DNA of 36,826 bases, taken from positions 1-36,826 of the forward strand of contig JBFGQG010000001.1 of the NCBI GenBank assembly GCA_041564295.1. Reading direction: 5' to 3'. Shown here in pieces: positions 24,275 through 33,693 of the stretch. The DNA comes from Anaerolineales bacterium (GTDB taxonomy: Bacteria > Chloroflexota > Anaerolineae > Anaerolineales > JABWBV01). How positions within the stretch are numbered: position 1 is the stretch's first letter; every line of letters begins with the position of its first letter. A program made the translations under genes and the position numbers. Under the pieces are notes generated by a model, which was given only the letters and a program-made list of their open reading frames with translations, did no database searches and was not told where the DNA came from.

Positions 24275-27200
24275 CTAATCGGTTGGAAAATCGACAGAGA
24301 CCGTCTGCAGCGTATCGGAGGCTGTCTGGATGTACAGCACGCCGTTCGAATAGTGAATGTTGTCGGCCCGGGGGATGCCCTGGATCGTGATTTCCCATAG
24401 AGGTTCCAGCTGGCGCTTGACGTAACCTCGGCATACGAGTTGGGTCTCCGCTCGAACAAGAGTGCACAACGTCAGATTAACCGCCGACGTATCTTCTGCC
24501 ACGACGAATGATTCTGATAAGTCTACCGTGATCTGGTTCAGGACCTCACCTTCAAAAGTCACCCAGTCGTAAATAATTGACCGGCCACCGGCCTGGACGA
24601 AGACGATCCAGATCGTGCCGTCTTCCGTGACCGAGAGCCGCGGTGGCAGGCCGCGCGTTGCATTGGGAGGAAAAGCGATCGTCACCTGCCTCTCGATGTT
24701 CAAATGGCCGCCAGGCAGGAGCGTCCATTCCATCACGGTGCTGCCGCTCATCAAGTAGGTTTTCCCGTCCCTGCCCATTGCGAACTGGTCGATCGGGAAT
24801 TCCGTTTCAACCAGCTCGACCAGCTCCCCGGTGGACGAGCGGACCACGTTATCGTCCACCGAGATCCAATCACCGGCTGGCGTGATCTGGATGGGGCGGT
24901 AGAAATTGAAGGTCTGAAGGGGTGTACGCCAACGCTGCGTGCCGTCCGGCCCGAGGGCTTCAATCTGGCCGCGTGTGCCGTTTGTTATCGTGTAGAAAAT
25001 ATCACCTGTGCTGCTGAAAACGGGGAAAAAGAATGCCGGGCGAAGGCCTTCTTCGAGGTCGTGTTTCCATAATAGTCCTTCCGAAGGCGTAAAGGCATAC
25101 AAAGAACCCTGTGAATCGAGAAGATAATACGTGTCGTCCGCGAGGCCGGTGATCGGCGGCGAATGCGGGGCTGCATCGAGCGGTATTTCCCAGTTCAACG
25201 TCCCATCGAGGGTGATGGCATAAAGGCGCGTATCCGAAGCCACGACAATGCTGCCGTCCTGTGCCAGGATGGGTGGAAAGGCCGTGCCGACCGTTCCGCC
25301 ACCGAAGAGCGTTTCTTGGAGGACATATACCGGTTCGGGCAGGGCGAAGGTGTGCAGGACAGCTCCGTCTGAATCCAGCACATAGAACTGGTCATCGGTT
25401 GTCAGCAAATATACGGTCTCGTTTTCGTGCAGGAGCGGTTCTACAAGCAAATCAGATGGGGTTTTAAAGATCCAACCGCTGCCTGTCGCGGTAATCGCAG
25501 TGCTTTCTTTGGCGGCATTGGCTTGCTGCTCTTCCAACGCTTCTGCGATACTCCGCTCCATCACGCCATAGATAAAGCCCTTCCGGCTGGCGAAGATGAA
25601 ACCGGACGGTGTACGAGTCCCGCCGGTGAGCGTATCCTGGATCCCCGGATATTCGCCGAAATCCACCTTCCAGGCGGGTCTTTCTCCGGTTTGCGTGAGG
25701 CTGAGGCAGGTTTCTTTTAATGGATCTTGCAGGCTGAACCGGTACCGTCCACAGACAATGACCGACAGATCGTCTTCCAATGAAACCGGCATGATCAGGA
25801 AGTGGTTGTCCGGTCCATGCGTCTCAAACAGCAGCTCACCCAGCTCGTTTTGCCAGAGGACGAAGCCTCCGAATACGAAGATGAATAGATTATCTTCCGT
25901 CACGTGTACGGTGAGGGGAGAAGCGACTCCGCCGAACTGCTCCGTGATCCCTGAAGCGCGGATGGTGGTGAGCAACTCCATCGTGCTGCCGCTGCGCTGC
26001 CATTCAAAAACTGCGGGTCCGGAGACCATGTAGTTCTTTCCATTGGTGCCGACGAAGAAAGAATCGGGCGCGATGGCGCTTTCAAGGATGACCGGCTCAC
26101 CAGTAGCGCTGTCGAAAAGTTCAGCGGCGATAAACACATACTCGCCTGCAGCCGTGAGCCCCGGCGGGCGGAAGAATTTTGCCGTCTGGATCTCTGCCCG
26201 CCAAAGCGGGCTTCCGTCCGGCCCGACGGCCTGTACAAGTCCGGATGTGCCCCGACTGATCGTGTAATACAGCACGCCATTCAAATCGATCACCGGCTGC
26301 GAAACGGCAGAATAACCGCCATCGGGCTGAACGTATTGCCATACCACCTCTCCTTCGAGCGTCAGGGCTGTTAACCCTCCGGACCGGTCCGGGAGGAAGA
26401 GCGTTTCACCGGAAATGACCGGGGAAAACGCAGGCGCCGGGTCGAGTGTGAGCTGCCAGCGGGACGAACCGTCGGGATTCAACGCGTAGACTTCCCCGCC
26501 GAGGCTCGCCACGTAGATGTTGCCCTCGGAATCGACAGCCGGATGTCCGGCGAAGCCGCTCTTGTCTTCCAGGGTCCATACGATGACCGGATCGGTGATC
26601 TGCACAGGCTCGGTCGGCATGGTGAACGGTTCTTCGCTGTTCCCGGCACCGGGGGTTTCGACCGGCTCTGCGGAGATCGTTTGCGATCCGCTGTCGCTCC
26701 CAACTGGTGTGGCGCTGCCTTCTGCCGCGCCGGGCAGTGGCGTCAGCGTGGGAGGAGCGCTTTCATAAAAGAACAGGTTGACCTGCGATTCCGGCAGCTT
26801 GAAAGTGCCGGCCTGCCAGCCCCGGACGCCGAAATAACCCAGCAAGCCGCCGGCAAGAAGCGCCCACAAGATGACGGCTACCCTCGTTCCAAACAACACG
26901 TTGCCGACCGGGTGCCAGGCCTGCGCGATGTTGAGCCGCAACGCGCCCATGGCATTGCTAAGCCAGCGGATGCGCAGGGTCTGTATTTCAGGGGAAAGCC
27001 GCAAACGCAGACCTTCGCCGATCAGGTTGAAGCCGAGGACGGCGACGAAGACCACGCTGCCCACAGAAACAAGCCCCCAGGGATCTGTGAGCCGCACCCA
27101 GGCGGTCGCAAGCATTTGCCCCAGTTCCGGCGAGCCGCTCGTGCGCCGGGCAACGAAGTCGGCCACGTCCACCCAGACATCGCCGCCGATGTAATAACCC

Positions 27201-27913
27201 AAAAAACCGAGTCCTGCGGTCAGCATCAACGTACTGCCCACTTCGAACGCCAACAGCATAAGCAGCATGGAGCGGATTTGCCGCAAGACGTGGCGGAAAA
27301 CGATCTGCGAATCGGTTGCGCCCATGGCGTAAGCAGCCTCTACGTAGACCTCATTGCGCACCGTGCGCGTTTGCTCCCGAACGAGACGGGCCGTCTCTGC
27401 CCAGCCAGTGAGCGACAGGCCAATGACGAAGGCCAGCACCCCCAGTTCCACCCCGACGATGGCAATTGCCCCGAGGGCGACGAGCAGCCCTGGCAGCGCC
27501 AGGGCGCTCGAGATGAGCGTATCGAAAAAGCTGCCGATTCTGCCGATCGAATAGCCGGCAACCAGTCCGATCAGGGTGCCGAGAATCAGCCGCACGCCTG
27601 CCACTACGAAGACCATCTGGAACGTAGGCCGCACGGCGTGCAGCAGCCTGCTGTAGATATCCCGCCCGAACTCGTCGGAACCGAGTGGAAAGCCGGTCAC
27701 TGTGAAGGCTTTGAACGGCGGCACGTGCCATTTCCCGGTGAACGGGTCTTTAACGATCAGGTTCTCTTCGATCGGGTCCCTGGGGGCCAGGGAGGGGCCG
27801 TAGACGGCAAGATAAGCGATTGTGCCGACGAAAAGAATCCCCAGCCAGAGCGGCCAGTTGATGGAAAAGCGGTACCCGCGTGCTTTATTGCGCCTGAGTG
27901 TTTTTGTCGTCAT
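24275..27913 (-). CDS. DppC/OppC-type ABC permease fused through an extra TM helix to ~850 aa of beta-propeller (PQQ/BamB-like) repeats
   Basis: aa 1-310: BPD-transport permease with the EAA-type loop VEAAYAMGATDSQIVFRHVLRQI. aa 344-363: additional hydrophobic helix VAVILWALLAGGLLGYFGV. aa ~440-1212: repeated motifs of the type GEVYALNPDGSSRWQ, TRLYAITLDGTLNWE, GSLYAFTPSEGLLWKH. Confidence 0.85.
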   Translation of the reverse strand: MTTKTLRRNKARGYRFSINWPLWLGILFVGTIAYLAVYGPSLAPRDPIEENLIVKDPFTGKWHVPPFKAFTVTGFPLGSDEFGRDIYSRLLHAVRPTFQMVFVVAGVRLILGTLIGLVAGYSIGRIGSFFDTLISSALALPGLLVALGAIAIVGVELGVLAFVIGLSLTGWAETARLVREQTRTVRNEVYVEAAYAMGATDSQIVFRHVLRQIRSMLLMLLAFEVGSTLMLTAGLGFLGYYIGGDVWVDVADFVARRTSGSPELGQMLATAWVRLTDPWGLVSVGSVVFVAVLGFNLIGEGLRLRLSPEIQTLRIRWLSNAMGALRLNIAQAWHPVGNVLFGTRVAVILWALLAGGLLGYFGVRGWQAGTFKLPESQVNLFFYESAPPTLTPLPGAAEGSATPVGSDSGSQTISAEPVETPGAGNSEEPFTMPTEPVQITDPVIVWTLEDKSGFAGHPAVDSEGNIYVASLGGEVYALNPDGSSRWQLTLDPAPAFSPVISGETLFLPDRSGGLTALTLEGEVVWQYVQPDGGYSAVSQPVIDLNGVLYYTISRGTSGLVQAVGPDGSPLWRAEIQTAKFFRPPGLTAAGEYVFIAAELFDSATGEPVILESAIAPDSFFVGTNGKNYMVSGPAVFEWQRSGSTMELLTTIRASGITEQFGGVASPLTVHVTEDNLFIFVFGGFVLWQNELGELLFETHGPDNHFLIMPVSLEDDLSVIVCGRYRFSLQDPLKETCLSLTQTGERPAWKVDFGEYPGIQDTLTGGTRTPSGFIFASRKGFIYGVMERSIAEALEEQQANAAKESTAITATGSGWIFKTPSDLLVEPLLHENETVYLLTTDDQFYVLDSDGAVLHTFALPEPVYVLQETLFGGGTVGTAFPPILAQDGSIVVASDTRLYAITLDGTLNWEIPLDAAPHSPPITGLADDTYYLLDSQGSLYAFTPSEGLLWKHDLEEGLRPAFFFPVFSSTGDIFYTITNGTRGQIEALGPDGTQRWRTPLQTFNFYRPIQITPAGDWISVDDNVVRSSTGELVELVETEFPIDQFAMGRDGKTYLMSGSTVMEWTLLPGGHLNIERQVTIAFPPNATRGLPPRLSVTEDGTIWIVFVQAGGRSIIYDWVTFEGEVLNQITVDLSESFVVAEDTSAVNLTLCTLVRAETQLVCRGYVKRQLEPLWEITIQGIPRADNIHYSNGVLYIQTASDTLQTVSVDFPTD

Positions 27914-32825: not shown

Positions 32826-32907
32826 GCCGAAGTGGCGGAACTGGCAGACGCGCGCGACTCAAAATCGCGTTCCTTCGGGAGTGTGGGTTCGATTCCCACC
32901 TTCGGCA
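32826..32907 (+). tRNA. tRNA-Leu (anticodon CAA)
   Basis: Hand-folded cloverleaf: acceptor GCCGAAG/CTTCGGC, D arm GCG-GAACTGGCAGA-CGC, anticodon stem CGCGA/TCGCG with loop CTCAAAA, long variable arm TCCTTCGGGAGT, T arm GTGGG-TTCGATT-CCCAC, discriminator A. CCA is not encoded. Confidence 0.93.
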
Positions 32908-32943: not shown

Positions 32944-32997
32944 AATTCTCGACGAGAGAACTCGAGTTTGTGTTCCAATCCGGTGAAAGGAGCTTTT

Positions 32998-33693
32998 GTG
33001 CAGAAAAATTATGAGAATCAGCAGTTAGACGCAGCGATTCGCCATTTTGTCTACACTTTTTTTGCCGGCGAAGCCCGTCCCCCCAGCACACAAGAGGCTG
33101 CAACCCAGCTCGGTCTGTCCGTAGCTGGAGTTGAGGCGGCATTCGAACGCCTGGCGGAAGAGCACCATCTCGTCCTGGCGCCAGGCACGCATACCATCTG
33201 GATGGCGCATCCTTTTTCCGGTCTTCCGACGAATTACAGCACACGTATCGGCTCGCAAACTTATTGGGCGAACTGTGCCTGGGATGTTTTTGGCATTGCA
33301 GCGATTCTGGGGAAAAACGCAACCGCCGATATTCCGTGCGGCTGCGGGGTGTGCAACCGACAGATAGTATTGGAAATAAATCCTGATGAAAGGATCGAAT
33401 CGAACTGGTTGGTGCACTTTGTTGTACCGGCCGCGCAGTTTTGGGATCGCATCGGGTATACCTGAGCAACGATTCTCCCCTTCAGTTCGAAGGAACACCT
33501 GGCTGACTGGTTGGACCGGCGTGGATTGCGCCAGGGATACACGATGTCCGTACAAACCTGTTGGGACCTTGCGCAGCGCTGGTACACCGGAAGAATGGAC
33601 CGCGATTGGTCGCGCCCTGATGTTGCAACTGTTCAAGAAATGTTCGATACTCTGGGTCTTTCGGGATCGTTTTGGGCGTTGACCGGAAACTGA
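32998..33693 (+). CDS. alkylmercury lyase (MerB) family protein interrupted by a single in-frame TGA at 33463-33465 (candidate selenocysteine codon, or a pseudogene)
   Basis: GTG at 32998 with AGGAG 5 nt upstream. YWANCAWDVFGIAAILG matches MerB LYAWCALDTLIFPALIG. The ORFs 32998-33465 and 33466-33693 are in the same frame. The downstream part, ATILPFSSKEHLADW, matches MerB CHVHFFASVPTAEDW. Confidence 0.6.
33479..33493 (+). other. small hairpin 13 nt downstream of the in-frame TGA (weak SECIS candidate)
   Basis: CCUUC-AGUUC-GAAGG, read directly. Only 5 bp; the loop has G at its second position. Confidence 0.2.

Follow-up and report, generated by a model that had tools for sequence, protein, structure and literature searches.

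The window analysed here is a stretch of 36,826 nucleotides at the start of an Anaerolineales contig (JBFGQG010000001.1), and the gene in question lies on its forward strand at 32998-33693. An earlier note, made from the letters alone, had proposed that this gene is a homologue of the organomercurial lyase MerB with selenocysteine (Sec), encoded by an in-frame TGA, in place of a catalytic Cys. The open reading frame (ORF) listing of the window gives two same-frame pieces, one on either side of the TGA at 33463-33465. Translation confirmed that they form one frame of 231 codons, as claimed, in which this TGA (codon 156) is the sole internal stop. The frame starts with GTG at 32998, five nucleotides after a Shine-Dalgarno-like AAGGAG (32987-32992, + strand, read directly from the sequence). 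It ends with a second TGA (33691-33693), the true terminator, which lacks a context resembling a Sec insertion sequence (SECIS). The 75 codons after the internal TGA (33466-33690), which are conserved in homologues and complete the MerB fold, are annotated as non-coding or as a separate ORF of 60 amino acids (aa). The single frame, the Pfam match and the conserved tail support a read-through coding sequence with Sec at codon 156. Among the 27 Pfam-supported genes of the window, 12 end in TGA; TGA is therefore not reassigned in this genome, as had been argued before, and a global reassignment was rejected. Two separate genes split at the UGA were also rejected, because the relatives with Cys at this position are contiguous and conservation begins right after the UGA without a start codon. 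No other gene of the window was found to be split by a TGA, the remaining candidates being off-frame noise or adjacent same-frame genes.

The read-through product, with Cys put for the stop, matches the Pfam MerB profile (PF03243) with 80.8 bits over profile positions 1-125 of 126 (gathering cutoff, 27 bits). In HMMER alignments to MerB sequences of the PDB (1s6l/3f0o family), N-C93-A-W-D96 falls on W-C96-A-L-D99, in agreement with the correspondence drawn earlier. The TGA column falls on Cys159 of MerB and on the equivalent Cys of MerB2 (5c17), and the spacing of 63 from Cys93 to codon 156 also holds. One detail had to be amended: the Cys at +21 (Cys114) had been equated with MerB Cys117, but a 2-residue gap in the hidden Markov model (HMM) alignment places Cys116 there. 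Thus TGT at 33274-33276 encodes Cys93, the equivalent of the metal ligand Cys96, and GAT at 33283-33285 encodes Asp96, the equivalent of the proton donor Asp99, which is invariant across the family alignments A1 and A3. The Cys93 column holds 58 TGC and 22 TGT codons among the best 80 main-family genomes, and TGA in 52 loci of the subclade to which the window gene belongs. The third catalytic position is UGA (33463-33465, proposed Sec156) rather than Cys, beside invariant Cys93 and Asp96, in an arrangement chemically analogous to the MerB triad, although it departs from the literal Cys/Asp/Cys set. A natural full-length relative with Cys at the TGA column (P0005, 40% identical to the window protein) stood in for the window protein in structure prediction. 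Its AlphaFold2 model (predicted local distance difference test score, 96.5; predicted template-modeling score, 0.91) was compared with the PDB by Foldseek, and the 11 fold matches at E ≤ 0.001 are without exception MerB or MerB2, led by mercury-bound MerB2 5c17 (template-modeling score (TM), 0.70/0.76). An additional Cys cluster, C114-G-C116-G-V-C119 (33337-33354, from alignments A1 and A5), lies near the position of MerB Cys117. In the subclade the cluster has the form P-C-G-C-G-x-C, in the main family C-x-x-C; it might be a metal hand-off site or a resolving pair for a Se/S-bound product.

The in-frame TGA is widely conserved. A scan of 185,579 genomes, one per species, returned at least 597 matching stretches, each a confirmed relative; its search pattern had Cys at the first ligand site, so forms with Sec at both sites were outside its reach. 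We examined the best 80 of these at least 597 matches, each from a different species-level genome. They share 34-45% identity with the window protein and come from Gemmatimonadota, Chloroflexota, Acidobacteriota, Actinomycetota, Marinimicrobia, Calditrichota, NC10, Phycisphaerae and one myxobacterium. All 80 carry TGA at this column as the sole in-frame stop, and never TAA, TAG or a sense codon. The frame continues for 71-89 codons after the TGA in 79 of the 80 loci and for 240 codons in L074. The tail opens with a conserved motif, [AS]-T-[IM]-L-[LF]-F-R-S-E-E-[HD], and the tblastn matches in the 80 genomes extend to residues 226-231. The residue before the TGA is Thr in 79 loci and Ser in L055, and Thr155 is invariant in the protein alignments. 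With 58 metagenome loci that have TGA at the same column, the in-frame TGA was found in more than 130 loci, and at this column the homologues hold no residue other than Sec (as TGA) or Cys.

The protein databases reflect the same stop. Among 5.8 billion proteins searched, 54 relatives were retrieved, most of which are short entries (132-162 aa), and all the aligned ones stop at one column after the invariant Thr. Three "full-length" entries show W at this column; the DNA of two of them (L081 and L082) confirms TGA, which indicates that the gene caller applied a code with TGA as Trp. When 1.84 billion cluster representatives were searched exhaustively with phmmer, 1,135 clusters matched at E ≤ 0.001, and 490 at E ≤ 1e-10. 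In this census, about three quarters of the best 150 clusters (well over 100, as read by eye from the table) end at the TGA column. Every database entry or gene call examined ends early, at about 155 aa in single-Sec forms and about 90 aa in forms with two Sec codons, and the generic names that the entries carry at their source include "hypothetical protein", "organomercurial lyase" and even "MocR regulator".

The population of the window is present in at least seven metagenome-assembled genome (MAG) assemblies (the window itself and loci L156-L161), and gene calling gives a 155-aa product in every one of them. The same TGA is found in GCA_041602895.1, GCA_041589135.1, GCA_041622735.1, GCA_041575435.1, GCA_041607875.1 and GCA_041628555.1. 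Each of these six sister assemblies differs by two to three single-nucleotide polymorphisms (SNPs) at gene positions 234, 528 and 642. These are third-codon changes without exception, all of them synonymous when the frame is read through, and two fall after the TGA. A sequencing or assembly error hiding a TGC or TGT, which a window drawn from a single MAG contig might raise, is scarcely credible, since six independent assemblies that differ at two to three other positions share the TGA and since it is conserved family-wide. The earlier note had also cautioned that TGY to TGA is a single-step mutation, so that the locus could be a recent pseudogene, namely an inactivated Cys-type MerB-like gene whose downstream frame has not yet decayed. 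The 155-aa product in the databases and the frameshifts in the related loci L135, L143 and L150 would agree with such decay. Yet the same codon in every one of the 80 genomes, across many phyla, and in the 58 metagenome loci is far beyond chance, as the note itself had reasoned for a nonsense hit on this one codon. The tail is conserved as protein, its SNPs in the population are synonymous, and the hairpin described below covaries and is tied to the TGA. A pseudogene is highly improbable on these grounds, and this caveat is effectively refuted. Separately, we observed that L135, L143 and L150 are frameshifted or diverge after one TGA, which reflects either real decay or low-coverage assembly error.

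Relatives with Cys at the TGA column (Cys-forms) were found in P0005, P0077, P0114, P0133, P0184, P0091, P0202, P0106 and P0175. The motif is T-C in eight of them and A-C in P0184, the tail is contiguous with the N-terminal part, and the codon is TGC in all four that were read at the DNA level (L164-L167). Two Cys-forms, P0091 (L166:3001-3942) and P0202, carry a C-terminal helix-turn-helix domain of the GerE/LuxR type, which hints that some family members are sensors or regulators rather than enzymes. Other unusual architectures in the family include P0013, in which an N-terminal RNase H domain is fused to the MerB-like part, and L061:1099-2385, whose ORF reaches 428 aa before the UGA.

A stem-loop follows the UGA in nearly every homologue. 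In the main family it has the form CUCUUCC-GGUC-GGAAGAG and starts 15 nucleotides after the U of UGA. The hairpin is 7-9 bp long; among the best 80 genomes the GGUC loop is present in 73, all pairs of the 7-bp core form in 53, and six of them form in 21. In the ungapped alignment A2, changes on both sides are seen at seven of the nine pairs. None of 500 column shuffles reaches the observed covariation score (0.180), and 84% of cells pair, compared with 52-62% after a shift of the 3′ arm by 1-3 nucleotides. The codons lying over the hairpin (F-R-S-E-E) are also strongly biased: CGG is used for Arg in 72 of 73 cases, TCG for Ser in 75 of 78 and GAA for the first Glu in 55 of 78, as against background frequencies of 0.31, 0.34 and 0.34 in the same genes, and this bias holds over genomes of 37-75% GC. 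Among the four Cys-forms L164-L167, on which this contrast is based, only three to five of the seven pairs are kept, Arg is CGC, and the loops read GCUC, GCAC, AAUC and GCCG. Since both the hairpin and the GGUC loop are gone in four of four Cys-forms, the structure is tied to the UGA and not to the protein.

The window carries a variant of this element, CCUUC-AGUUC-GAAGG (33479-33493, + strand), with the stem at 33479-33483/33489-33493 and the loop at 33484-33488. It begins 13 nucleotides downstream of the UGA codon and encodes P-F-S-S-K-E. The hairpin is present as the earlier note described it (5 bp, loop AGUUC), but its rating there as a weak SECIS candidate does not stand, because it is a subclade variant of a strongly conserved and covarying SECIS-like stem-loop. 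Of the 34 distinct sequences of the subclade, 23 have the loop AGUUC, 7 have AGGUC, and the other four likewise fit N-G-[G/U]-U-C. All five core pairs form in each of 32 aligned subclade sequences, C-G to U-A double changes are found at two pairs (in five and three sequences), and the covariation score of 0.205 is again higher than all 500 shuffles. The loop G-U lies at +22/+23 from the U of UGA, the offset of the G-U in Escherichia coli fdhF. The comparative evidence thus makes 33479-33493 credible as the right element, to which SelB is predicted to bind.

The subclade contains a further form with two UGA codons. A metagenome scan found 52 loci, 45-62% identical to the window protein, with TGA at both ligand columns, in the motifs G-N-U-[AVI]-W-D and T-U-A-T-I-L. 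Double-TGA loci occur among L084-L132, at columns homologous to window positions 33274-33276 and 33463-33465 (MerB Cys96 and Cys159), and also in L081 (970-972 and 1159-1161) and L082 (549-551 and 738-740). In 44 distinct sequences a separate long hairpin follows the first UGA at +13 to +52, with 82% of cells paired as against 40-50% in slid registers. Its covariation score (0.212) is above all 500 shuffles, and double changes occur at no fewer than four pairs. The outer helix of this hairpin keeps 9.6 of 11 pairs in double-TGA genes versus about 6 of 11 in genes with Cys at the first site, including the window gene and L083; where this codon is TGY the hairpin is thus lacking. In a neighbour-joining tree, which carries no support values, a clade of 46 tips contains the window gene and L083 as its sole Cys/Sec members, and all its other tips are Sec/Sec. 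The double TGA implies a predicted Sec/Asp/Sec active site in most of the closest relatives of the window gene, and we found no prior description in the literature of a MerB-like enzyme with Sec at both metal ligands. A second hairpin of 7-8 bp (CACACCC-CGUGC-GGGUGUG) was seen in 44 double-TGA loci at +53 to +73 after the first TGA, over the H-T-P-C-G-C-G codons (L082:602-622, with a degenerate counterpart at 33327-33347 in the window). It is close to perfect in the double-TGA genes (7.2 of 8 pairs), as against 3.0 pairs for the main family and 5-6 for the window gene and L083, and varies mostly by G-U wobble; it may contribute to a composite SECIS or be unrelated.

Because the TGA and the tail are conserved, the hairpin covaries and Cys-forms exist, it is very probable that 32998-33693 encodes a genuine selenoprotein of the MerB fold. 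The proposal of a Sec-containing MerB homologue is thus supported, by the column restricted to TGA or Cys, the covarying hairpin and the TGA shared by six assemblies. In the mechanism that we envisage, SelB and Sec-tRNA(Sec) would use the stem-loop at 33479-33493 to read UGA156 as Sec, and the active site would consist of Cys93, Asp96 and Sec156, corresponding to MerB Cys96, Asp99 and Cys159. By analogy with MerB, the selenolate and the thiolate would bind a metal(loid) and the Asp would donate a proton to the carbon ligand, so that the enzyme would cleave a carbon-metal(loid) bond by protonolysis. An organomercurial and some other target seem about equally probable as the physiological substrate.

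Several points weigh against this reading. The window stem is only 5 bp long, has a local folding energy of -6.0 kcal/mol and lies outside the global minimum free energy fold. No Rfam match was found at the gathering threshold in the whole window or at E ≤ 10 in 33400-33600, a null that weighs little and is uninformative because it is not established whether Rfam models this kind of element. No selA, selB, selD or tRNA-Sec gene was found in the 36.8-kb window or in 1.25 Mb of flanks of related loci (at most 10 kb each), searches that neither find nor exclude Sec genes elsewhere in the source genome. ARAGORN found no tRNA-Sec in the window or 60 related loci, and tblastn of E. coli SelA, SelB and SelD against the 1.25 Mb gave only a generic GTPase and an AIR-synthase-type match at about 25% identity. 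The scores against the NCBIfam MerB equivalogs are far under the cutoffs (NF009710, 30.9 versus 193; NF033555, 21.3 versus 200). None of the mer operon genes merA, merR and merT/P is present at the window locus, and no neighbour family is common to more than 8 of 81 loci. The function is assigned from the fold and the active-site residues only, and a Hg-Se bond might be too stable for turnover, so that the substrate may not be an organomercurial.

The absence of Sec genes from the DNA searched bears on one alternative in particular. UGA156 might be recoded to Cys or another standard residue, by a selC* tRNA-Cys with a SelB paralogue or by near-cognate read-through, with the hairpin as a selenium-free signal. 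Opal suppressors of the selC* tRNA-Cys type linked to selB* do exist, and allo-tRNA suppressors have been reported in Acidobacteria (PMC5389517). However, reports of selC* come only from anaerobic Firmicutes, Thermodesulfobacteria, Nitrospirae and Proteobacteria, and it always accompanies a complete Sec system (PMC5389517). It would also be pointless to maintain a UGA with a SECIS in many phyla just for Cys, as TGC forms exist and lose the hairpin, and the GGUC loop and its spacing are those of a canonical SelB-binding SECIS. Non-Sec recoding is therefore very unlikely. The Sec trait (selenoproteins and tRNA-Sec) is on record at the phylum level in Chloroflexi, Actinobacteria and Acidobacteria (PMC1794560, PMC5389517), and our literature search on Sec in Anaerolineae found nothing decisive.

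A second alternative concerns function and accepts Sec as correct. The protein might bind, traffic or sense metal(loid)s or selenium, or act on other organometal(loid)s (Sn, Pb, As or Se), instead of being an organomercurial lyase. The lack of a mer operon or a conserved neighbourhood, the low scores against the MerB equivalogs, the additional Cys cluster near the active site and the GerE/LuxR DNA-binding domain fused to some Cys-form relatives all fit such a role. Metal-bound PDB entries have been deposited for MerB2 and the MerB D99S mutant. MerB2 and MerB D99S bind copper. The SaoL paper, moreover, argues that Hg need not be the metal of the related selenoprotein (10.1101/2022.07.06.499078). 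The full triad is nevertheless invariant, including the proton-donor Asp that is absent in MerB2, and this is a signature of cleavage and not of mere binding. We regard a role other than organomercurial cleavage as a substantial possibility, if on balance a doubtful one.

The genes flanking the predicted selenoprotein gene encode an extracytoplasmic function (ECF) sigma factor, tRNA-Leu(CAA), thymidylate kinase (tmk), a Zn-ribbon protein, homoserine dehydrogenase and a peroxiredoxin. Recurrent neighbours across the related loci reflect clade-limited synteny and appear by eye to be unrelated to metals, and no SAO-type context (ABC (ATP-binding cassette) transporter, SaoE) was found near the window gene. 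In this isolation the gene differs from merB, which lies in mer operons, and from saoL, which belongs to a nine-gene locus. The named relatives of the GlgC protein encoded in the window (67-73% identity) are all labelled "Anaerolineales bacterium", in keeping with a probable Anaerolineales (Chloroflexota) source. A promoter scan of the upstream region gave only the signals of the tRNA-Leu gene. This tRNA-Leu(CAA) gene (32826-32907, + strand) lies 90 nucleotides upstream and has its own promoter-like site and terminator. A tRNA-Leu(TAA) gene is found 0.6-1.3 kb upstream in six Gemmatimonadales loci (L016:5329-5413, L026:5072-5156, L036:4800-4876, L042:5274-5357, L046:4630-4714 and L047:4839-4923). 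The presence of tRNA-Leu upstream in unrelated lineages may be a coincidence or mark an insertion hot spot. Elsewhere in the window, a 1,212-aa ORF on the reverse strand (24275-27913) has an unusual architecture that combines an ABC permease domain (BPD_transp_1) with a PQQ/BamB-like beta-propeller; beside it are a second permease gene and a 526-aa ORF without a Pfam match.

Taken as a whole, the data point to an uncatalogued and widespread family of Sec-containing MerB-fold proteins, in which the clade of the window gene mostly has Sec at both ligands, a separate hairpin for each UGA and a diselenolate Sec/Asp/Sec site; we put this combined picture forward tentatively, with confidence just short of even. 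The family is represented in no fewer than about 600 species-level genomes and, at 50% identity, by about 490 clusters, from soil, freshwater and marine habitats, in Gemmatimonadota, Chloroflexota, Acidobacteriota, Actinomycetota and other phyla. If the reading is true and these proteins act on methylmercury or other organometal(loid)s, demethylation could proceed through a selenium-dependent enzyme without any mer operon, and this enzyme would directly connect the cycles of selenium and mercury. A survey of merB diversity in which Cys159 is mandatory would probably drop these sequences, and a family model with a SECIS pattern would restore full-length proteins in hundreds of genomes. The clade is common in phyla with many aerobes, which runs counter to the statement that aerobic bacteria rarely retain selenoproteins (2026 review, PMC13188914), whereas SaoL is rare and confined to strict anaerobes. 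A selenol in place of one or both Hg-binding thiols would bear on the speed of protonolysis, on the release of a very stable Hg-Se product, and on whether mercury is the substrate at all. Furthermore, in the series of Sec/Sec, Cys/Sec and Cys/Cys forms a hairpin comes and goes together with each UGA, and the series would offer a clean natural system for the origin of a SECIS inside coding sequence.

Four known systems can be compared with the window gene. The SECIS of E. coli fdhF, which we folded for comparison, is a stem-loop directly 3′ of the UGA in the coding region, as in the window family. Its GGUC apical loop lies at +21 to +24, and that of the family consensus at +22 to +25. The window stem is shorter than that of fdhF, without its lower helix and bulged U, and has a 5-nucleotide AGUUC loop on a 5-bp stem. 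The MerB of plasmid R831b (1s6l, 3f0o, 3f0p) shares the fold with the P0005 model (Foldseek TM of about 0.6-0.66); its Cys96-x-x-Asp99 corresponds to N-C-A-W-D in the window family, and the third ligands of the two share a column. The window protein differs from it in that Sec replaces Cys159, the adjacent Cys160 is lacking, identity is about 21-22%, and the gene lies outside a mer operon. MerB2 of Bacillus megaterium (5c17) is the best sequence match of the window protein (profile E value, 6e-14). The local motif G-T-C-K-Q-I-H-Y-F-S-S-V-E-H of MerB2 corresponds to Y-T-U-A-T-I-L-P-F-S-S-K-E-H in the window, with Cys where the window has Sec. MerB2 has Ser at the Asp99 position (C-A-I-S), as opposed to C-A-W-D in the window protein.

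The closest parallel in selenium use is SaoL, a MerB-like selenoprotein that carries a C-U motif where MerB has Cys159 (Haft and Gwadz 2022, 10.1101/2022.07.06.499078). It is found in 45 of 52 nine-gene SAO loci among 15,511 genomes, all of anaerobes, and its hosts are exclusively anaerobic spirochaetes, deltaproteobacteria and clostridia (10.1101/2022.07.06.499078). The earlier note could not say whether a Sec-containing MerB-like family had already been catalogued: such a family, SaoL, was indeed described in 2022, but the window gene is not SaoL. Two reviews list SaoL as the only MerB-like selenoprotein (PMC9312934; PMC13188914, 2026), NCBIfam release 20 has no model for the window family, and we found no description of a second Sec MerB clade in the literature. 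SaoL and the window family share the MerB fold (PF03243), a UGA-encoded Sec at the Cys159 column, equivalents of Cys96 and Asp99, entries routinely truncated at the UGA, and rare Cys-forms. The differences are numerous. The window protein scores 30.8 bits against the SaoL model NF040728 (cutoff, 140); its family motif is T-U instead of C-U; its gene has no SAO locus around it; and about 75 residues follow the Sec in its family, compared with about 50 in SaoL. The hosts of SaoL are strict anaerobes, whereas the window family occurs in Gemmatimonadota, Chloroflexota, Acidobacteriota, Actinomycetota, Marinimicrobia and others, and is far more widespread (at least 597 stretches in 185,579 species genomes versus 45 SaoL loci in 15,511 genomes). 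Since its scores are far under the NCBIfam cutoffs for both MerB and SaoL, the window protein is classed by sequence as a divergent member of the MerB superfamily outside both named families. Set apart from SaoL by HMM score, motif, locus and host range, the window gene thus belongs to a second and much larger clade of predicted Sec-containing MerB proteins.

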